This document shows, piece by piece, positions 35,967-53,689 of a stretch of DNA of 64,000 bases. This DNA comes from Gammaproteobacteria bacterium (GTDB lineage: Bacteria; Pseudomonadota; Gammaproteobacteria; Ga0077536), in NCBI GenBank assembly GCA_963662545.2, contig CAXXLL010000003.1, positions 2,400,001 to 2,464,000 on the forward strand, given 5' to 3'. How positions within the stretch are numbered: position 1 is the stretch's first letter; every line of letters begins with the position of its first letter. The notes beneath the pieces are model-generated. The model searched no databases, was not told the origin of the DNA, and saw nothing but the letters and a program-made list of their open reading frames with translations. A program made the translations under genes and the position numbers.

Positions 35967-36120
35967 CTGATCCTGTGTAGTGGGTGCTGAACCCCCACAC
36001 TATCAGTATCTTGCTCGGCCTGGGCATCGGGTTAAGCGCTAAGTCGACTGTTCGTGCGGGTTGTCCCTGCGATGGGAAAATCCCTATAATTTTTGCCATT
36101 CATCGGCCCGGGAGTTCGAG

Positions 36121-37944
36121 ATGAAACGACGGCTCACAGCGTTTTCGATTGCGCGTATCGCAGCCTTATCGATGGCCGTTAGTGCCGCCGCGGACGAGGC
36201 GTGGGAGGGCGATCTGTCGCCAATCGATCCGGCCGGCTGGAATCAGGCGACGGCGCGCCACCTGATTGAACGGGAGGGATTGGGCGGCACGCCCGCGGAT
36301 ATCGATGCGCTCGCCGCAATGACACCCACCCAAGCGGTTCGCCACATGGTTCACTTCGAGGGTGCGATACCTGCCGAACTGCAATCATTCGATCATTCCG
36401 GCATCTTCGAGGAAGGCCTCGATCCTTTTCCGCCGAGCCGGCCGGCAACCACGGCGCTGGCGCAAGAACACGGTGAAGCGCTCGGTATCAAGGTGAAGCC
36501 ATCGGGCAACCGTCCGATGCAGGCGATCGTCGACAAGTTCTTCTACTGGCTGCGCGCCAGCCGCCTGGAAACGGATCGGGTGGCGTACTGGTGGGCGAAC
36601 CGGATGCTGGTAACGCCTTATCCTCTGCAGGAAAAGACGGTACTGTTCTGGCACGGTCATTTCGCGACGAACGAGGACAAGATCCGCGATTACCGCAAGC
36701 TATTAAAGCAGCTCGAGCTGTTTCAACGCGAAGGACTGGGTAATTTCCACACCCTGTTGATCGGTGTCGCCCAGGATCCGGCCATGCTCGCGTTTCTCGA
36801 TGCCGGGGTCAACGTAAAAGGCTCGCCCAACGAGAACTTTGCGCGAGAGATCATGGAATTGTTCACCATGGGCGTCGGTAACTACACCGAGCGTGACATT
36901 CGTGAAGGTGCTCGTGCCTTTACCGGGTGGAATTAATCAGGGCTCGAATTCCGGGTCGACCCTGCCAAGCACGATGACGATGAAAAGGAATTTCTCGGCC
37001 GCAAGGGCGATTTCGACGGTATCGACGTCATCGACATCATTCTCGAACAGGAGGTCACGGCCGAGTTCATCGCGGCCAAGCTCTATCGCTTCTTCGTACG
37101 CGAAGACATCACGCCGGAATTCAAAGCACGTCTCGGTAAGCTGCTCAAGGACGCCGATTGCGAAATCGCGCCCTGGCTAGAAACCGTTTTTCTGTCGCGC
37201 GATTTCTACGCCGCATCTTCAATCGGCACACGGATCAAAAGCCCCGTCGAACTGGTCATTTCAACCTATCGCAAGCTTGGTCTGGACGTCGTACCGGGAG
37301 CGCCCGATTTCAACCTCGTCACTGGCGCCCTGGGACAGCGCCTGATGCATCCGCCCACGGTCGCGGGCTGGAGTTATGGCCGCAGCTGGATCACGCCGAG
37401 TCTGTTGATCGAACGGGGTAATTTTGCGCTGGACGTGGTGTTTCCCGATATCGTCTTCGTGCCCAATGACCGCTATCCGGAATACCCGAGCGGCCCCGAG
37501 ATACGGGCAGTCCACAGGCGTCTGCGCGATGGCGAAGACATCGCTTCGGCCACCCGCCCCGTCGATGCCGTCCAGGTCGACGGCATGATGTCGATGTCCA
37601 ACACCGTCGATCGCGATGAAGCCTTCAACACCCGCTACGGGAGCTACCGCGGCTGGCAAACTGCCATCGAACGCGTCAAGCCCATCGTGCGCCACCTGGC
37701 GAACTTCAACCTGGCGAAGATGGTGATGGCACGGGAACTGGCGACGCCCGTCGCGGTGGTGGACTATTTCATGCACCGGTTTTTCTCGGTCCCGCTGGAC
37801 TTAACGACCCAATCCATGCTCGCCGACGCGCTCGAGCATGATCTCGGCACAGGTGCGGTTTTGTCCGCGGAAACGTACATGGAAGGGCCCTTGCGGGTGT
37901 TGCTGCACCTGATGCTGAGCCGGCCCGAATATCAATTAGGCTGA
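36121..37944 (+). pseudogene. DUF1800 family protein interrupted by an in-frame TAA at 36934-36936
   Basis: FWHGHFAT, PNENFAREIMELFTMG and ARAFTGW motifs precede the stop. The same frame stays open afterwards (HD...K.FLG, IKSPVE, PPTVAGW, PEYQLG). Confidence 0.85.
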
Positions 37945-37948
37945 CATC

Positions 37949-39157
37949 ATGTTGAATCGACGCACGCTTCTCAAACGTACCGCCCAGGGGCTTGGCGGCT
38001 TGGGTCTCTTCTCCGGCAGCCTTTTATCGCCAGTCGCGCGCGCCTTCGCGGCCGAGGCGGCACGCGAAGATCGGATCCTGGTCGTGTTCGAGCTATCCGG
38101 CGGCAACGATGGTCTGAATACGGTCGTCCCTTTCTCTGACGACACCTATTACCGACTACGACCGCAGATCGGCATCAGGCCGGCTGATTTACTGAAACTG
38201 GACGATGACTGGGGATTCAACCCCGGACTGTTGGGCCTCCAGCGCCTTTGGAATGACGGACAGCTCGCGATCGTACACGGCTGTGGTTACGAGCGGCCGT
38301 CTTTTTCACACTTCACGTCCATGGCTTACTGGCATACCGCCTCGCCTAACAGCGGTGACGAGTACGGCTGGTACGGGCGTCTGGCTGATGCGATGGCGAG
38401 TGAAGCGCGGGCGAATTTTCTGATCAACATCGACACCGCACAGTCCCTGGCGGTCAAGAGCCGTATTCATACGCCCGTGGTGTTCGACGATCCGGAGCGC
38501 TTCAAGCGCAATGCGCTTTTGCAGGAAAAAGCCATTCTCGATTACGTCGACGACCAGTTCGGAAAAAACGCAACCCTCGACTACCTCAACCTCGTCGCAC
38601 GCGGCGCGCGCGAAGCCTCTGCGCTGATTCGCCAGGCTTGGGCGAACTACCGCTCACCGATCGACTACGGCATCGCCCCATCTCAATTCCGCAAGGTGGC
38701 GGCGTGTATCGCCGCGGGCCTGCCCACCCGGCTCTACTACATTGCGTTTCCCAACAACGCTTTCGATACCCACGTGCAGCAACCCGATCTGCACCGGCGT
38801 CTGTTGAGCTATGCGAGCGACGCGGTACACGGTTTCCTGCACGATATGGAGCGCATCGGATACGCAGACCGCGTATGCGTCATGATGTTTTCGGAGTTCG
38901 GACGGCGTGCGCCGGAAAACGCGAATCTGGGCACCGATCACGGCGCCGCCAACCTAATGATGCTGGCGGGCAAAGCCGTGCACGGTGGCCATTACGGCGA
39001 GCCGCCGAGCCTGGTGGACCTGGATGACGGGGACAATCTGATCTACACGACGGATTTCCGGCGCGTCTACGCGACGGCTATCGACGGCTGGCTCAAAGTT
39101 GGCGCGGCAGACACCGTACTCAAAGGGCGGTTCGATCCGTTCCCGATCTTCGCCTGA
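37949..39157 (+). CDS. DUF1501 family Tat-exported protein
   Basis: NRRTLLK Tat leader; LSGGNDGLNTVVP, FDTH, SEFGR and GTDHG motifs. Confidence 0.92.
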   Translation: MLNRRTLLKRTAQGLGGLGLFSGSLLSPVARAFAAEAAREDRILVVFELSGGNDGLNTVVPFSDDTYYRLRPQIGIRPADLLKLDDDWGFNPGLLGLQRLWNDGQLAIVHGCGYERPSFSHFTSMAYWHTASPNSGDEYGWYGRLADAMASEARANFLINIDTAQSLAVKSRIHTPVVFDDPERFKRNALLQEKAILDYVDDQFGKNATLDYLNLVARGAREASALIRQAWANYRSPIDYGIAPSQFRKVAACIAAGLPTRLYYIAFPNNAFDTHVQQPDLHRRLLSYASDAVHGFLHDMERIGYADRVCVMMFSEFGRRAPENANLGTDHGAANLMMLAGKAVHGGHYGEPPSLVDLDDGDNLIYTTDFRRVYATAIDGWLKVGAADTVLKGRFDPFPIFA

Positions 39158-47607: not shown

Positions 47608-47812
47608 GGTGATTCCTTAAAGGTTTGTACCATCAGGGGAACGTGAGATTGATCAGAATCGATGTTAATTGCGGCCGAGGGAAGGAGCAAGGAGCGCCGG
47701 CCTTGTAGATGGTATCCACGTTTTTGGCGACCCGTTTTAAGCTGTCGGCATATTCGCCAACGTAAATCCATCCGGTATTGCCATGACGTTCGGGGCGGGT
47801 GACACTGCATGA

Positions 47813-48415
47813 ATGACCCGTTCACCGCGCTTTGACAGCAGATGCTGCGTCCGGCGCCGCACATTTCTTGCCGGTATGCTGGGCAGCACCTTATTCGGAA
47901 TCGGCACTTTCGCCGCCACGAACGCTGGAACGCGTTCAAAAGACCCTCGGAAATTGCCGCCACAAATCGGCGACGAACTGGTACGTCCCTCTTGGGAAGA
48001 TGAAGGTCGCATCATTTCAATCGACGACCTCCCGTTGAACGGCCCGCCGCTTCTCGCCTACCCGCGCGATCCTGCTGCGGGAATCGCGCGCGAACGGTCC
48101 CGATTGAATCAGATCCTGCTCGTGCGTCTCGAGTACACCGAAATGAGCGAGCAGACTCGTGCAGTCGCGGATGCAGGCATCGTCGCCTATTCCGGGATTT
48201 GCACACACGAAGCCTGCGGCGTGTCGGAATGGAACGCGGCCGACCGGTATTTCATCTGTCCCTGTCACGCCTCCGAGTTCGACCCCAGGAATCGCGCGGC
48301 AGTGGTGGGCGGACCCGCTCGGCGTGCCCTCCCCGCCTTACCGATCAAACGCGTCGGCCGGAACATCGTCGTAGCCGGAAAATTTACGAACCGTGTTGGC
48401 GCAAAAAGAAAGTGA
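47813..48415 (+). CDS. Tat-exported Rieske [2Fe-2S] protein
   Basis: RRRTFL leader; CTHEAC and CPCHASEF boxes; GPARRALP. Confidence 0.9.
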   Translation: MTRSPRFDSRCCVRRRTFLAGMLGSTLFGIGTFAATNAGTRSKDPRKLPPQIGDELVRPSWEDEGRIISIDDLPLNGPPLLAYPRDPAAGIARERSRLNQILLVRLEYTEMSEQTRAVADAGIVAYSGICTHEACGVSEWNAADRYFICPCHASEFDPRNRAAVVGGPARRALPALPIKRVGRNIVVAGKFTNRVGAKRK

Positions 48416-48423
48416 ATCAAACC

Positions 48424-50142
48424 ATGAAACGATCGATGAGATTCTTCGCGCTTGCGTGCATAAATACCTTAGTTTCACTCGCCGTAGATGCAGAACCCAT
48501 TGACTATAATCCGGTCACCGCCGATCGCCTAATCGAGCCGGAGCCCCGGAATTGGCTGATGTACCGCGGCACTTATGACAGCTGGGGATACAGCCCGCTC
48601 GACCAGATCACACCCGACAACGTGGCTGGTCTCATCCCCGTCTGGACCTTTTCCACCGGCGTCGAGGAAGCGCACCAGTCGCCGCCCATCGTCAACGATG
48701 GGATCATGTTCATCACGACGCCTGAAAACCAGGTCTTGGCGCTCGACGCCCGCACGGGCGATTTGATCTGGCGTTACCGGCGCGAATTGCCGGACGATCT
48801 TATGCAACTCCACCCGACCAATCGCGGTGTCGCCTTGTGGAGCGATCGTGTCTATCTCGCAACCGTCGACGCTTACCTGATCGCGCTCGATGCCCGCACT
48901 GGAGAAGTGATATGGGAGCGCGAGGTCGAGGATTATCTCGGGGGTTATTACATGACTCTTGCGCCGCTGGTAGTCGACGGCAAGGTAATGGTCGGCATGT
49001 CGGGCGGCGACCTCGGCATCCGCGGTTTCATCCAGGCTTTCTCGGCGGATGCCGGCGAGCCGCTGTGGAAGACTTACATGGTGCCGGGACCCGGCGAGCC
49101 AGGCCACGATACCTGGCCCGGTGATACCTGGAAGCGGGGCGGCGTTTCGATTTGGGTAACGGGCAGTTACGATCCGGACACCCAGCTCGCCTACTGGGGC
49201 ACCGGCAACGCGGGGCCTTGGATCGGAGATCAACGGTCGGGCGACAATCTCTACGCGACTTCGGTGCTTGCGCTCGATATCGCCACCGGCGAGGTGCGCG
49301 CACATCATCAATATCACTGGAATGATTCGTGGGACTGGGACGAAGTCTCAGCACCTCTGCTCGTCGATATCGAGCGCGGCGGCAGAAAGATCAAGACCCT
49401 CGTTCACGCGGGACGCAATGGCTATCTATGGCTGCTCGAACGAAGCGCTGAGGACATTCGTTTCGTCGATGCGACCCCGTTCGTACGTCAGAACGTCTTC
49501 ACTCGGCTCGACCCGGAGTCCGGCCGTCCGGAATACGACCCGACCAAGGTTCCGCGGACCGGTTCGCGCGTCGAGTTCTGCCCCAGCATCTGGGGCGGTA
49601 AGGACTGGCCACCGTCCGCTTACAATCCCAAGACCGGCTACCTCTACATTCCGGCGAACGAGAATCTTTGCGGCGCATTTACAGGTGAACCGGCGAAATA
49701 CCGGCGCGGAGAGCTTTATCTGGGCATGCAGTTTTCGACGATCGAAGTTTTTCCGCACGAGGACGCCGCGCATCACATCGGCGAATTGCAGGCCTGGGAT
49801 CTGACCGCAGGGAAAAAAGTCTGGACGGTTGAGTTTCCGTTTCACAACTGGGGTCCGGTTCTGACCACCGGTGGCGGTCTGGTGTTCTCCGGCGGGACCA
49901 ACGACCGCTATTTCCGCGCCTTCGACGCCAAGACCGGCGAAACACTGTGGAAACAACGGACCAACTCGGGCATCGTCGGCGTCCCGACCAGCTACAAAAT
50001 CGACGGCGTGCAATACGTCGCTGTGCAGTCAGGCTGGGGTGTCGACGCTCAACGCAAGCAGGAATATTTGGACAAGGCTTTCGGCACGAAGACGCACGTA
50101 CCGCAAGGTGGCGTGCTGTGGGTGTTCGCGCTGGGCAATTGA
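48424..50142 (+). CDS. PQQ-dependent dehydrogenase (alcohol-type), atypical active site
   Basis: YSPLDQI, TNRG, GTGN, WDWD and GRNG motifs plus W-docking repeats. An alternative GTG at 48412 overlaps the Rieske stop. Confidence 0.92.
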   Translation: MKRSMRFFALACINTLVSLAVDAEPIDYNPVTADRLIEPEPRNWLMYRGTYDSWGYSPLDQITPDNVAGLIPVWTFSTGVEEAHQSPPIVNDGIMFITTPENQVLALDARTGDLIWRYRRELPDDLMQLHPTNRGVALWSDRVYLATVDAYLIALDARTGEVIWEREVEDYLGGYYMTLAPLVVDGKVMVGMSGGDLGIRGFIQAFSADAGEPLWKTYMVPGPGEPGHDTWPGDTWKRGGVSIWVTGSYDPDTQLAYWGTGNAGPWIGDQRSGDNLYATSVLALDIATGEVRAHHQYHWNDSWDWDEVSAPLLVDIERGGRKIKTLVHAGRNGYLWLLERSAEDIRFVDATPFVRQNVFTRLDPESGRPEYDPTKVPRTGSRVEFCPSIWGGKDWPPSAYNPKTGYLYIPANENLCGAFTGEPAKYRRGELYLGMQFSTIEVFPHEDAAHHIGELQAWDLTAGKKVWTVEFPFHNWGPVLTTGGGLVFSGGTNDRYFRAFDAKTGETLWKQRTNSGIVGVPTSYKIDGVQYVAVQSGWGVDAQRKQEYLDKAFGTKTHVPQGGVLWVFALGN

Positions 50143-50209
50143 TCGACCGTCGCGTCCGGACGCTGCGCCGGGATCGAAATCGAAAGACGTCACAGCCGAT
50201 AGTTGCTTA

Positions 50210-51274
50210 CTACCGGCCCGGGGTATGACTGCGGTCGATAAACTTGTCGAAGTAAATATCGCGGCCTCGTACGCCGGCATTCATGAGGATCGGCAGTGCG
50301 GCATCTATCATCCCGGGGGGGCCGCACAAATAAGTCTGACAGCCTTGGAGCTTGAACTCATTCACTGCCTCGATGAAGTCGGTGACTAAGCCGCGCGCAC
50401 CCTGCCAGTCGCTGTCTTCGGGTTCTTCGGATAACACCGGAAGAAAGCGGATCGGCCCGGCCCATCCCTTCGTGAGCGTTTCCACGAACGCATCCTCGTA
50501 GAGGTCGGCACGCGTGCGCGCACCGTAGAGATAAACCACGCGACGAGACAGACCGACCTGGCGACCCACCTCCAGCATGGCTTTGATCGGCGCCATGCCG
50601 CTGCCGCCGGCAATACACAAGATCGGCGCGTCCGATTCGCGCAGCCGGAACACACCGAATGGGCCTTCGACTCCAAGGGTCGCGCCCACGCAGTCGCCCG
50701 CGGCAAACCAACCCGACACTTCGCCGTCTGGGATCAGGCGTACATGGAAGGAGAGATCATCGCTGCCGTCACTTCTCGGCGCCTGCGCAAAGGAATACGA
50801 CCGGCTCCCCTCTACTCCCGGCACGCTGAGGTTCGCGTATTGGCCAGCGTAGTAGTCCATAGGCCCGTCGAGGGAGATGCGTACATGTAGGATATCGCGC
50901 GTCAGATTGGAGACCGACGTCAAACTACCGTTGAAGTTTCGCGCCGGAATCATATCGAGGCCATCGTCGAGCGAGGTGACTCGGATTTTGAGATCGCTCT
51001 TGGCCAGCGATTGGCAGGCGAGAATATATCCGCCGCGCATTTCCGCCACGTCGAGCGTGTAGGCGAAATCGGTCAGCGGCTTGATGTCGCCTTCGAGCAG
51101 TAGTGTCTTGCAGGATGAACAGGCGCCGACCTGGCATTCGTGGGGATAAGCGAGCCCGGCCTTGAGCGCGGCTTTGAGGATCGTTTCGCGGGCGTCGACC
51201 GTCAAGCTTATGCCGAAAGGCTCAACGTAGACCTGATGGGTTTTAGGCGTGCGGCTGAATATGCGCTTAAGCAT
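50210..51274 (-). CDS. 2Fe-2S/FAD/NAD reductase component (XylA-like)
   Basis: CQVGACSSC...ACQ plant-type Fe-S motif; RSYS, GGSGMAP and CGPP motifs. Confidence 0.9.
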   Translation of the reverse strand: MLKRIFSRTPKTHQVYVEPFGISLTVDARETILKAALKAGLAYPHECQVGACSSCKTLLLEGDIKPLTDFAYTLDVAEMRGGYILACQSLAKSDLKIRVTSLDDGLDMIPARNFNGSLTSVSNLTRDILHVRISLDGPMDYYAGQYANLSVPGVEGSRSYSFAQAPRSDGSDDLSFHVRLIPDGEVSGWFAAGDCVGATLGVEGPFGVFRLRESDAPILCIAGGSGMAPIKAMLEVGRQVGLSRRVVYLYGARTRADLYEDAFVETLTKGWAGPIRFLPVLSEEPEDSDWQGARGLVTDFIEAVNEFKLQGCQTYLCGPPGMIDAALPILMNAGVRGRDIYFDKFIDRSHTPGR

Positions 51275-51288
51275 GAAGACAGGCGATG

Positions 51289-51353
51289 TTCGCCCGCAAG
51301 CAGGCTCTTACAGGGGTTTTTTCACGCCCGTAGGAGCTCGCTTGCAGGTGAAT
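51289..51353. repeat. Degenerate REP doublet between the monooxygenase and reductase genes
   Basis: TTCGCCCGCAAGCAGGCTCTTAC ... GTAGGAGCTCGCTTGCAGGTGAAT. Confidence 0.75.
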
Positions 51354-51382
51354 GAAAGATAGTTTTCGCTCGTGCAGTACCT

Positions 51383-52558
51383 TTATTGAGGGGCCGTCGC
51401 AGCCCGGGTATACACGGAAATACCACTCCCCGCGTTTTGCTCGACGGCAATCTGTCGCTCCTGCGCCGTCGCGAATTCCTCGTCCCACTTGAGTATCTGG
51501 GGCCCTGTTACCCAGCGGAACACGGGCGGGAAGTAGGCCAAGAAGGCATTCGTAACGCAGCCGGTTTTCAGTATGGGCACATTGCCCGCTTTGGCCTTGG
51601 ACAATTCGTGAAAAGGCCGGTTCGGGTGCGTATGGTGTTCGGAGTGTTTGCTCACGTTGAACAACACGACTTGAGAGCAGAGGCGGTTGCAGTTCCACGA
51701 ATGCCGCGTGCCATAGGTCTCACCGGGCGACAACACCAGCCCGTGATGGAACATGTAGCCGATCGCCTCGTACATCATCTTGCTCATCCAGAATGCGATC
51801 GTATACATGCCGACCGCGAGCCAGCCGCCTAGGAGGAACACCGCGGTCCACACGACGCCGATACGCAGCCCGCATCGGATCATCTTGTTGCCGATCGAAA
51901 TGACCCCGTGCCCGTGTTTCGCCAGGCGTTTTGTTTCAACGTCCCAGGCATAGAGGATTTGCTTGAAGGGCGCGGTCGAATAAAACGCCCAATAACTGTC
52001 CCCGCGCAGCGACAGTGATGCGTCGTACGGTTGCCCGAGCGTGTGGTGATGGCCGTAGACGTGTTCGGTCTCGAACGGAATACCGCCGGACATCGCAAAG
52101 AACCAACGCCCGAAGAACATCGCGACCGGATCCCAGGTCCGGTGAATGAGCTCGTGGCCCATAATGGTGTTAATAATTGCAAGCATTAAACCGAGGCCCA
52201 AGGCACCGCCCACGTAATCAATGATCCCGTTGCTGGCCTTCGCGGCCAGTGCGTCGTAGCCAGTCAGAGCCGCGACTGCGCTACCGATACCGAATAAATC
52301 GCCCGGCGCTATGGTCCAGATAAAGATCACCGCGGTGCCCACTATCACCGGAAAGTAGCTGTACAGAATCAAGTTCAGGATCTGTGGGTAGCTGTATTCA
52401 GGTGCTTCGCCATGATCACCGAACAGAAAATCACCGCCGACGGTGCCCACGATCGTGAATACGTATCCGAGCCACAGCCAGTGGCCGCCGAGTATGAATC
52501 CGAACACCGTTACGCCGATGAGAATATCGTTCGATAAATACTTGAGGTATTTCAGCAT
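51383..52558 (-). CDS. Membrane di-iron monooxygenase (AlkB/XylM/CymAa family)
   Basis: His boxes HELIH, EHVYGHH and HSEHH; HSWN; N-terminal TM helices. Confidence 0.9.
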   Translation of the reverse strand: MLKYLKYLSNDILIGVTVFGFILGGHWLWLGYVFTIVGTVGGDFLFGDHGEAPEYSYPQILNLILYSYFPVIVGTAVIFIWTIAPGDLFGIGSAVAALTGYDALAAKASNGIIDYVGGALGLGLMLAIINTIMGHELIHRTWDPVAMFFGRWFFAMSGGIPFETEHVYGHHHTLGQPYDASLSLRGDSYWAFYSTAPFKQILYAWDVETKRLAKHGHGVISIGNKMIRCGLRIGVVWTAVFLLGGWLAVGMYTIAFWMSKMMYEAIGYMFHHGLVLSPGETYGTRHSWNCNRLCSQVVLFNVSKHSEHHTHPNRPFHELSKAKAGNVPILKTGCVTNAFLAYFPPVFRWVTGPQILKWDEEFATAQERQIAVEQNAGSGISVYTRAATAPQ

Positions 52559-52896: not shown

Positions 52897-53541
52897 TCAT
52901 TCCACGCTGGCGGCAAAAACACTCAAATCCTGCGGCCCGCCACGCTCAAGCGCCCGTTTATAAGCGTCGCGCGAGCGCAAACCGTCGAGATATTTCTGCA
53001 AGCCGGGGAAACTCTTCAAGCGTCCGCGGCATTCCGAAAATTCAAGTGTCCAGCCGAGGTTAGTGTCCGCCGCCGAGAAGCCCGAGGCCAGCACGAACTC
53101 GCGCCCGTCGAGACTGTCCTGCAGAAACTGGTGATTCTTCGTGATCTCAACGTCGAAAAAACCCATCAGCGTGTCGTTGCCACCACCGGTCCACGCGTAC
53201 AGAAGATCGACGATTAAGCCCGGAAACAAGGTGCCTTCCGAATAGGCCGACCATTGCAGGTATTCGCCGTATTCCGGTGAGTCGGAACTGCGGCTCAGGC
53301 GGCCGCCACCCAGCTTGTTGCAGACGTATTCGGTGATGGCTTCGGATTCAACAATGAGTTTGCCATCGTGCTCGATCGTCGGCGCTTTGCCGAGCGGATG
53401 CACCTGGTTCAGTGAGTCGGGCGAACGTTGTGTTTCGGCATCGCGTTGATGCTTGACGATGTCGTAGGTAATTTCGAGCTCTTCGCACAGGAACAAGATG
53501 CGCTGCGAGCGGGAATTGTTCAAATGATGGACGGTGAGCAT
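52897..53541 (-). CDS. Glutathione S-transferase
   Basis: HHLNNSRSQRI, HPLGKAP and ESEAI motifs. Confidence 0.92.
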   Translation of the reverse strand: MLTVHHLNNSRSQRILFLCEELEITYDIVKHQRDAETQRSPDSLNQVHPLGKAPTIEHDGKLIVESEAITEYVCNKLGGGRLSRSSDSPEYGEYLQWSAYSEGTLFPGLIVDLLYAWTGGGNDTLMGFFDVEITKNHQFLQDSLDGREFVLASGFSAADTNLGWTLEFSECRGRLKSFPGLQKYLDGLRSRDAYKRALERGGPQDLSVFAASVE

Positions 53542-53555
53542 GGGTATTTCTCCTT

Positions 53556-53585
53556 AGGTCGAGGTCGAGGTCGAGGTCGAGGTCG
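53556..53585. repeat. Hexamer tandem repeat (AGGTCG)x5
   Basis: Seen directly, immediately upstream of the GST Shine-Dalgarno. Confidence 0.85.
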
Positions 53586-53689
53586 GGGTATGGGCATCAG
53601 CATTGCGCCGACCACATTAGTGTAATTGATTTTCCATGAAGGCCCATCGCACCGTGTGAATCGGAAAGGCAATGGCGGCGGACCGGATT

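Follow-up and report, generated by a model that had tools for sequence, protein, structure and literature searches.

We analyzed a 64,000-nucleotide stretch (referred to here as the window; G000:C3:2400001-2464000) of a gammaproteobacterial genome (5.58 Mb in three contigs), in which a gene for a Rieske [2Fe-2S] protein lies directly upstream, on the same strand, of a gene for a pyrroloquinoline quinone (PQQ)-dependent dehydrogenase of the methanol/ethanol family (Table 1). An earlier note on this DNA had described a Rieske protein exported by twin-arginine translocation (Tat) and coupled to the dehydrogenase; all of the sequence features behind that description are present, and they recur in related loci, so they are not due to chance. 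The two genes meet at the tetranucleotide GTGA (48412-48415), where the TGA stop codon of the Rieske gene (48413-48415) overlaps a GTG codon (48412-48414) that is in frame with the dehydrogenase. This overlap had been read as the start of the dehydrogenase gene; the overlap stands, but the ATG at 48424 (MKRSMRFFALAC; Sec-like signal) is an equal or better candidate and may be the true start. With either start, the gap between the genes is at most 8 nt. Dehydrogenase residue numbers are counted from this ATG (572 amino acids [aa]), and counts of invariant residues refer to alignments of 67 sequences (A1 for the dehydrogenase).

The pair is not accompanied by genes of a conventional cytochrome partner. 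A Pfam scan of 45 open reading frames (ORFs) of the window detected no cytochrome c domain, and no cytochrome b or c1 gene was found near the pair among the scanned ORFs. In open frames of at least 60 aa, CxxCH occurs at just three sites of the window, namely, 2292, 58198, and 45004, the last of which is antisense to a luciferase-like gene; none of these sites is near the pair. These data agree with the previous remark that no cytochrome c gene is adjacent.

Table 1. Features of the Rieske/dehydrogenase gene pair (window coordinates)
Feature	Position	Strand	Basis or remark
Rieske [2Fe-2S] protein gene, proposed small redox subunit/electron acceptor	47813..48415	+	200 aa; PF00355 1.2e-09
Tat signal peptide, residues 1-38	47813..47926	+	Read from sequence; RRRTFL at 47852-47869; probable cleavage site follows ATNA
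Rieske box I, CTHEAC (C130, H132, C135)	48200..48217	+	C130/H132/C135 invariant (67/67); 132-136 in predicted interface
Rieske box II, CPCHASEF (C149, C151, H152, S154, F156)	48257..48280	+	148 and 150-153 in predicted interface
PQQ-dependent dehydrogenase gene, methanol/ethanol family	48412 (GTG) or 48424 (ATG)..50142	+	TIGR03075, PF01011, and PedH match
Sec-type signal peptide, MKRSMRFFALACINTLVSLAVDA	48424..48492	+	Read from sequence; cleavage site putative
Loop DDLMQLHPTNRG, residues 124-135, in place of the Cys-Cys ring; predicted Rieske docking site	48793..48828	+	PedH alignment
GGDLGIRG, Asp196 at metal-ligand Glu position (PedH Glu199)	49003..49026	+	PedH alignment
Asn262, metal ligand (PedH Asn281)	49207..49209	+	PedH alignment; invariant (67/67)
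WDWDE, Asp304 (catalytic base/metal ligand) and Asp306 (extra Asp of lanthanide enzymes)	49330..49344	+	PedH Asp323/Asp325; invariant (67/67)

In the N terminus of the Rieske protein, RRRTFL (residues 14-19) provides the twin-arginine motif and is followed by a hydrophobic region and ATNA. Its two boxes (CTHEAC...CPCHASEFD) provide the four cluster ligands plus two extra cysteines, which form the disulfide pair of respiratory Rieske proteins; C149, C151, H152, and S154 are invariant (67/67). The S-x-F of box II had been taken to suggest a lower potential. This motif is present in the window protein, but position 156 is either Phe (46 of 67) or Tyr (21 of 67), and a lowered potential by this route is therefore not a trait of the family. 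The closest solved relatives by sequence were the Thermus thermophilus proteins 1NYK/3FOU (E value, 1.2e-27), followed by actinobacterial QcrA; AioB of arsenite oxidase matched with an E value of 1.7e-11. All NCBIfam scores were below the cutoffs, i.e., those for NF050121 (QcrA; 84.2 bits versus 275), TIGR01416 (32.6 versus 97.4), and the AioB model TIGR02694 (48.6 versus 95.65), and the neighboring gene encodes a PQQ propeller, not AioA. An AlphaFold2 model built with the 67-sequence alignment (mean pLDDT, 88.4; pTM, 0.78) superposed on 1nyk_A with a TMt of 0.97 (root mean square deviation, 1.2 A; 35% identity) and on AioB chains with a TMt of 0.63 to 0.73. Both the ligand/disulfide motif and the predicted fold thus assign the protein to the respiratory-type Rieske class and, as far as sequence and model indicate, to the Thermus/actinobacterial bc type and not to the AioB type in descent. 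The AioB-like acceptor proposed in the earlier note is accordingly not borne out in ancestry (TM scores, 0.97 versus approximately 0.7); it holds as a functional analogy.

The dehydrogenase scored 587 bits against TIGR03075 (cutoff, 480.05) and matched PF01011 (1.9e-83), and its closest solved relative in HMMER alignments was the lanthanide enzyme PedH (6zcv; E value, 5.7e-110). In MxaF, XoxF, ExaA, and PedH, a ring formed by vicinal cysteines lies over PQQ, and electron transfer to cytochrome c depends on it. PedH RPCCDVINRG aligns with MQL-HPTNRG of the window protein, in which Cys131 is matched by L129, Cys132 by a gap, and Asp133 by H130. The window enzyme thus lacks the Cys-Cys ring, and its loop is one residue shorter, which bears out the previous reading of QLHPTNRG as a ringless variant. 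H130, P131, T132, N133, and R134 of this loop are invariant (67/67), as are R331 and W476 elsewhere in the protein.

The metal site resembles that of the lanthanide enzymes. According to PMC11845868, the PedH ligands are Glu199, Asn281, Asp323, and Asp325 (the chain numbering of our 6zcv alignment agrees), and the extra Asp (Asp325) is a signature of rare-earth enzymes. The catalytic Asp and the second Asp two residues on, both recognized in the WDWD motif by the earlier note, face Asp323 and Asp325 as expected from that assignment. The Asp in place of the metal-ligand Glu, also recognized there, is present in the window protein (D196 opposite Glu199 of PedH, the ligand that is Glu177 in MxaF) but is not a family feature: position 196 is Glu in 66 of the 67 sequences and Asp only in the window protein, while a 93% identical relative outside A1 (L009) likewise has Asp. 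This Glu-to-Asp replacement appears to be lineage specific and not a part of the family mechanism. Use of a lanthanide by the dehydrogenase is possible, judging from its ligand set. The genome encodes PqqC (348 bits; cutoff, 240) and PqqE (565 bits; cutoff, 381) side by side on contig 2, and a supply of PQQ is therefore plausible.

To assess the conservation of the arrangement, we scanned one genome per species (GTDB set), which gave 523 stretches with relatives of the dehydrogenase; the best 80 (61 to 93% identical; flanks of up to 4 kb) were kept. These 80 loci were labeled Gammaproteobacteria (including Porticoccaceae), Acetobacteraceae, Bryobacterales, Binatia, Rokuibacteriota, Myxococcota, and others. 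The pair occurs in several bacterial phyla, and most of the carriers found are uncultured; named carriers, all among the Acetobacteraceae, are Roseicella sp. DB1501 (L030), Pseudoroseomonas ludipueritiae DSM 14915 (L042), and a Dankookia sp. (L046). In 76 of the 80 loci, the gene immediately upstream, in the same orientation, was a homolog of the window Rieske gene. Two of the other four had no upstream DNA (L064 and L073), one had transposase-like ORFs upstream (L022), and one had a different ORF of 482 aa (L034). The distance from the Rieske stop codon to the dehydrogenase start had a median of 26 nt, was 100 nt or less in 63 of 74 cases, and was 0 or less (i.e., overlapping or abutting) in 7 of 74, all counted with heuristic starts.

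The motifs were conserved along with the gene order. WDWDE was present in all 80 loci, HPTNRG was detected by pattern in 79 (the exception, L062, has HPTNR in A1), and a twin-arginine motif preceded the Rieske domain in 70 of the 76 upstream genes, with three of the six misses cut by the end of the locus. Neighbor clustering at 82 loci revealed neither a conserved cytochrome c gene beside the pair nor any third gene of general occurrence (SDR, 10 loci; TonB-dependent receptor, 8; the rest, fewer). Distances among the Rieske proteins and among the dehydrogenases were correlated in a mirror-tree comparison (r = 0.74; maximum of 500 permutations, 0.08); this correlation reflects co-inheritance, as expected of neighbors, and is no evidence of binding. 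A single long match, P0271, was considered as a fusion and was rejected; in it, a Rieske part with its own Tat signal at residue 449 comes after a MoCoBD_2 protein, and the whole looks like a gene-calling read-through artifact. In public annotations, the dehydrogenases are named "alcohol dehydrogenase (cytochrome c)," and the Rieske proteins are named "Rieske Fe-S protein" or "ubiquinol-cytochrome c reductase iron-sulfur subunit."

The pairing also proved exclusive when approached from either protein. We searched approximately 400 genomes sampled across the class with both sequences; the dehydrogenase search scored three candidates per genome and may have missed copies. Strong Rieske matches (E value, <1e-28) were found at six places in five genomes (two in the genome holding the window and one each in G129, G058, G088, and G361), and all six were followed by a dehydrogenase with HPT[NS]RG. 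Conversely, dehydrogenase matches of at least 59% identity occurred at exactly the same six places, adjoining the Rieske matches. The next-best dehydrogenase matches (44 to 45% identity) were Cys-Cys enzymes in G000 (the genome holding the window), G129, and G302 without a Rieske match, and four weak Rieske matches (E values, 1e-9 to 1e-11) had other box motifs and no PQQ neighbor. In these genomes, members of the Rieske subfamily and of the HPTNRG clade of dehydrogenases thus occur only with each other. The survey of HPTNRG-type homologs for Rieske genes, proposed in the earlier note, found the two in synteny among species and within the class. At one of the six places (G088:C1:432157-432648; L095), the Rieske match contains a single TAA stop codon, which may be a sequencing error or mark a decaying copy; the downstream dehydrogenase is intact.

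The genome holding the window offers an internal comparison, as it encodes nine PQQ dehydrogenases of the methanol/ethanol family (eight above the TIGR03075 cutoff and one below). The HPTNRG type of Cys-Cys loss is confined to the window gene and a 59% identical paralog (C3:2717608-2719395). Immediately upstream of this paralog lies a second Rieske gene whose product is 40% identical to that of the window (CTHEAC...CECHLSRF). The dehydrogenase of this second pair (G000:C3:2717608-2719964, - strand) has HPTNRG and WDWDE and keeps the Glu ligand (GAEFG), and the pair is flanked by transposase-like ORFs. In the 3-kb surroundings of the nine genes, the two HPTNRG genes had a Rieske motif beside them and the seven others had none; CxxCH, in contrast, occurred inside or near five of the seven others and near neither HPTNRG gene. 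The paralogs in this genome include enzymes that have both Cys-Cys and a D-x-D motif, and one of these has motifs resembling those of XoxF. Three further enzymes of the quinohemoprotein type (C3:1357597-1359681, C2:1766032-1768137, and C2:2207202-2209319) have a C-terminal CxxCH domain, no Cys-Cys (LWDWNRG or similar), and D-Y/F-N instead of D-x-D; by their sequences, they appear to be another Cys-Cys-less lineage with an internal heme.

We then modeled the complex of the mature parts (dehydrogenase 24-572 and Rieske 45-200, each with a 67-row alignment). Three runs gave ipSAE values of 0.78, 0.72, and 0.79 (median, 0.78), whereas the best of three controls reached 0.00; the cofolding suggested earlier thus favored association. 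Of 80 solved complexes, 58 reach the ipSAE mark used, as do 2 of 110 mismatched pairs; these counts are only roughly valid here because our own alignments were used. The runs agreed in at least 93% of the contacts, and the pLDDT of the partner was at least 89. On the Rieske side, the interface comprised residues 132-136, 148, and 150-153 (the cluster loops with His132 and His152), 96-98 (the conserved SRLN), 167-168 (an invariant Gly-Pro), and 196-197. On the dehydrogenase side, it comprised residues 124-129, 131, 172, 427-438, and 540-547, of which the stretch 124-131 is the loop that replaces the Cys-Cys ring. The contacts of lowest predicted error joined dehydrogenase residues 127-129 and 131 with Rieske residues 133-134. 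Among the 16 invariant Rieske residues, C130, H132, C135, C149, C151, H152, R97, G167, P168, and G196 lie no more than one residue from the interface. By this geometry, the iron-sulfur cluster of the modeled complex sits above the opening of the PQQ site. We know of no solved complex of a PQQ dehydrogenase and a Rieske protein, and it therefore seems unlikely that the prediction merely reproduces a known structure.

Relatives of the dehydrogenase were numerous (42,746 proteins among 50%-identity cluster representatives; E value, ≤0.001). A FastTree phylogeny of 107 full-length representatives and the paralogs of the genome holding the window, midpoint rooted and composed without named reference sequences, united the HPTNRG proteins (P0121, P0122, P0123, P0259, and the two copies of this genome) in one clade. 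Its sister was a Cys-Cys group with TWDYDE (P0124 and P0129). One member of the clade, P0122 (1,075 aa; HPTNRG), combines a propeller-like N-terminal part, an acidic linker, a cytochrome c domain (391-459), and then the PQQ domain.

On the basis of the conserved operon, the reciprocal co-occurrence, the second paralogous pair, and the complex prediction with its controls, all of which are computational, we consider it probable that the pair codes for a periplasmic quinoprotein dehydrogenase of two components, in which a Rieske protein replaces cytochrome c as the electron acceptor. Each of these tests supported the periplasmic, lanthanide-type quinoprotein with a dedicated Rieske acceptor that the earlier note had envisaged. 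In the mechanism that we propose, the dehydrogenase would be exported unfolded via Sec and would bind PQQ and a metal in the periplasm through a lanthanide-type ligand set (Asn262, Asp304, the extra Asp306, and Asp196 where its relatives have Glu). An alcohol-like substrate, as suggested by family membership, would be oxidized at the metal site with reduction of PQQ. The lost Cys-Cys ring would have been replaced by the one-residue-shorter loop with its invariant His-Pro-Thr. The Rieske protein, Tat exported, disulfide bearing, and apparently of the respiratory Thermus/QcrA-like type, would dock with its cluster tip on loop 124-131 and take two electrons, one by one, from reduced PQQ, as the pairing and the predicted interface suggest. 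It would thereby fill the role held elsewhere by cytochrome cL, XoxG, or c550, and it would be reoxidized by a periplasmic or membrane acceptor encoded elsewhere. The PQQ/PQQH2 couple lies near +90 mV and respiratory Rieske centers lie at approximately +150 to +300 mV, so that electron flow from PQQH2 to the Rieske center would be downhill. A further proposal, which we advance tentatively and regard as rather doubtful, is that the pair represents an unrecognized class of periplasmic respiratory dehydrogenases, in which PQQH2 beside a lanthanide would be oxidized directly by the His-ligated Rieske tip in a soluble two-protein analog of the Qo site; the cluster would then have access to PQQ through an adaptation in which the Cys-Cys lid was lost and the invariant His-Pro-Thr loop was acquired.

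The proposed system shares parts with several known ones. PedH/ExaF and XoxF (6ZCV/6ZCW, 6DAM, and 4MAE) are periplasmic members of the same family (TIGR03075) and have the catalytic Asp, the Asn ligand, and the +2 Asp in common with the window enzyme, which differs from them by the missing Cys-Cys ring, the loop shorter by one residue, the invariant HPT, the Asp for Glu, and the separate clade that its type forms among the 50%-identity representatives. A gene for an XoxG/ExaB-type cytochrome c is not adjacent here; a Rieske gene takes its place. Arsenite oxidase AioAB, also a periplasmic oxidoreductase, passes its electrons first to a Tat-exported Rieske protein with bc-type cluster motifs, but its catalytic subunit is a molybdopterin enzyme and not a PQQ propeller. 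AioA hitchhikes on the Tat signal of its Rieske subunit, whereas the dehydrogenase of the window has a Sec-like signal of its own, and the analogy is therefore functional only. The closest proteins in sequence and fold are 1NYK and actinobacterial QcrA, which have the same CxHxxC...CxCH with the disulfide cysteines. Where these subunits of bc complexes have a membrane anchor, the window Rieske protein has a Tat signal that can probably be cleaved, and its partner would be a quinoprotein with bound PQQ instead of a membrane quinol site.

Several observations weigh against a Rieske protein as the acceptor. The complex score is the model's own confidence, obtained from our own alignments, and is no measurement. 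The Rieske gene is missing in 2 of the 78 informative loci, and no Rieske-PQQ fusion protein was found in a search for proteins longer than the Rieske query, which is weak evidence. Many other PQQ dehydrogenase clusters are also without Cys-Cys and have no known Rieske partner; the loss is therefore not unique to the HPTNRG clade. In the window copy, the Asp at the position of the metal-ligand Glu might weaken metal binding. Furthermore, an acceptor for the Rieske protein was not found, and there was no other conserved neighbor in the 82 loci. The fusion in P0122 implies that cytochrome c may be the direct partner in some members; this protein is the main hint of such a role in the HPTNRG clade, if the fusion is real. 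Together with the N-terminal cytochrome c domain of a sister Cys-Cys cluster (P0124) and the lack of an evident acceptor among the neighbors, P0122 would fit an arrangement in which the two genes are cotranscribed and yet electrons do not pass directly from the dehydrogenase to the Rieske protein, i.e., a cytochrome c or cupredoxin encoded elsewhere receives the electrons, and the Rieske protein acts further down the chain or serves another enzyme. We judge this arrangement unlikely, because the pairing is exclusive in both directions, the predicted interface sets the cluster loops on the active-site loop while the controls scored 0.00, and the most conserved Rieske residues sit in that interface.

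Synteny and the predicted complex speak for an association and not for a direction of electron flow, and both would also be compatible with a Rieske protein that binds the dehydrogenase in a nonrespiratory role, such as activation, redox regulation, or donation of electrons to the PQQ site. This role is very unlikely in our estimation: all features of respiratory high-potential Rieske proteins are kept (the disulfide cysteines, the invariant Ser154, and a fold nearly identical to that of 1NYK), the transfer from PQQH2 to the Rieske center is downhill by the potentials given above, and we know of no precedent for a Rieske protein that activates, regulates, or feeds a PQQ enzyme. It is also conceivable that the propeller is inactive as a quinoprotein, either as an "empty" PQQ-like propeller or by the Glu196Asp replacement, and that the pair is unrelated to alcohol oxidation. 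The match to TIGR04528 (acido-empty-quinoprotein group A; 378.9 bits), although below the cutoff of 650, and the restriction of Asp196 to the window copy within A1 would accord with this explanation. It is nevertheless highly improbable in view of the TIGR03075 score above the cutoff, the invariance of N262, D304, D306, R134, R331, and W476, and the PQQ synthesis genes (PqqC and PqqE) of the genome; moreover, relatives 61 to 78% identical to the window protein are spread across phyla, which argues for functional selection. The Rieske protein as the electron acceptor of a functional PQQ dehydrogenase thus remains the interpretation that we favor.

Several further observations concern the surroundings and the occurrence of the pair. 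In eight loci (L023, L079, L081, and L084-L088), labeled Porticoccaceae, "Candidatus Reddybacter," and unclassified Gammaproteobacteria, a gene for a TonB-dependent receptor of approximately 720 aa lies divergently upstream of the pair and may serve the uptake of a metal or a substrate. In the window, two genes occupy 50210-52558 on the - strand, convergent with the PQQ gene; one encodes a 391-aa membrane hydroxylase of the FA_desaturase family that resembles AlkB/XylM, and the other encodes a 354-aa ferredoxin-FAD-NAD reductase that resembles BenC/XylA. Their products could be a source of alcohol substrate for the dehydrogenase, and this neighborhood is not kept in the other loci. Sequence nearly identical to window positions 47700-50200 is present in 20 listed public sequencing runs from eight studies, some labeled sponge metagenome. 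A comparison with contigs of four runs yielded one 180-nt contig of a metatranscriptome run (X20) on 48650-48827 with one differing letter, which is at most a weak hint of transcription of the dehydrogenase gene. Other short pieces from the runs, on 48577-48626, end in unrelated sequence and were dismissed as paralogs of other organisms. Elsewhere in the window, a DUF1800/DUF1501 gene pair spans 36061-39157, with the DUF1800 part divided between the ORFs 36061-36936 and 37345-37944, pointing to a frameshift, an insertion, or faulty assembly. A short simple repeat coding for (GR)n/(RP)n lies at approximately 53520-53630 between a GST gene and an adenylate/guanylate cyclase gene.

A PQQ dehydrogenase with a Rieske partner was not found in the full-text literature searched, which did not extend to subscription journals or the Keltjens 2014 classification. 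To our knowledge, every characterized soluble PQQ dehydrogenase of the methanol/ethanol family, whether dependent on Ca or a lanthanide, uses a c-type cytochrome, an internal heme, or a cupredoxin. The accessible portions of PMC11697101, PMC10875860, PMC11845868, PMC4307304, and PMC10715153 do not describe such a pairing. A [2Fe-2S] cluster has been reported for the alcohol dehydrogenase of Gluconacetobacter diazotrophicus, a membrane-bound quinohemoprotein, with electron paramagnetic resonance g values of 2.003, 1.934, and 1.919 (PMC4307304, citing Gomez-Manzo 2010). The cluster is assigned there to the PQQ- and heme-containing subunit I of a ubiquinone-reducing membrane complex, and no separate Rieske subunit is involved. 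We met no other PQQ alcohol dehydrogenase with an iron-sulfur center in the literature search. The g values of this enzyme resemble those of a ferredoxin more than those of a Rieske center. Relative to the literature found, we read PQQ dehydrogenases with a Rieske electron acceptor as a new type of redox partnership.

The Cys-Cys ring is regarded as part of the electron route out of PQQ dehydrogenases. If the proposed function is true, periplasmic electron transfer and lanthanide biochemistry would gain a new branch in the form of a widespread clade whose members use a Rieske protein instead of both the ring and the cytochrome, and the reading of "XoxF-like" genes in metagenomes would change.

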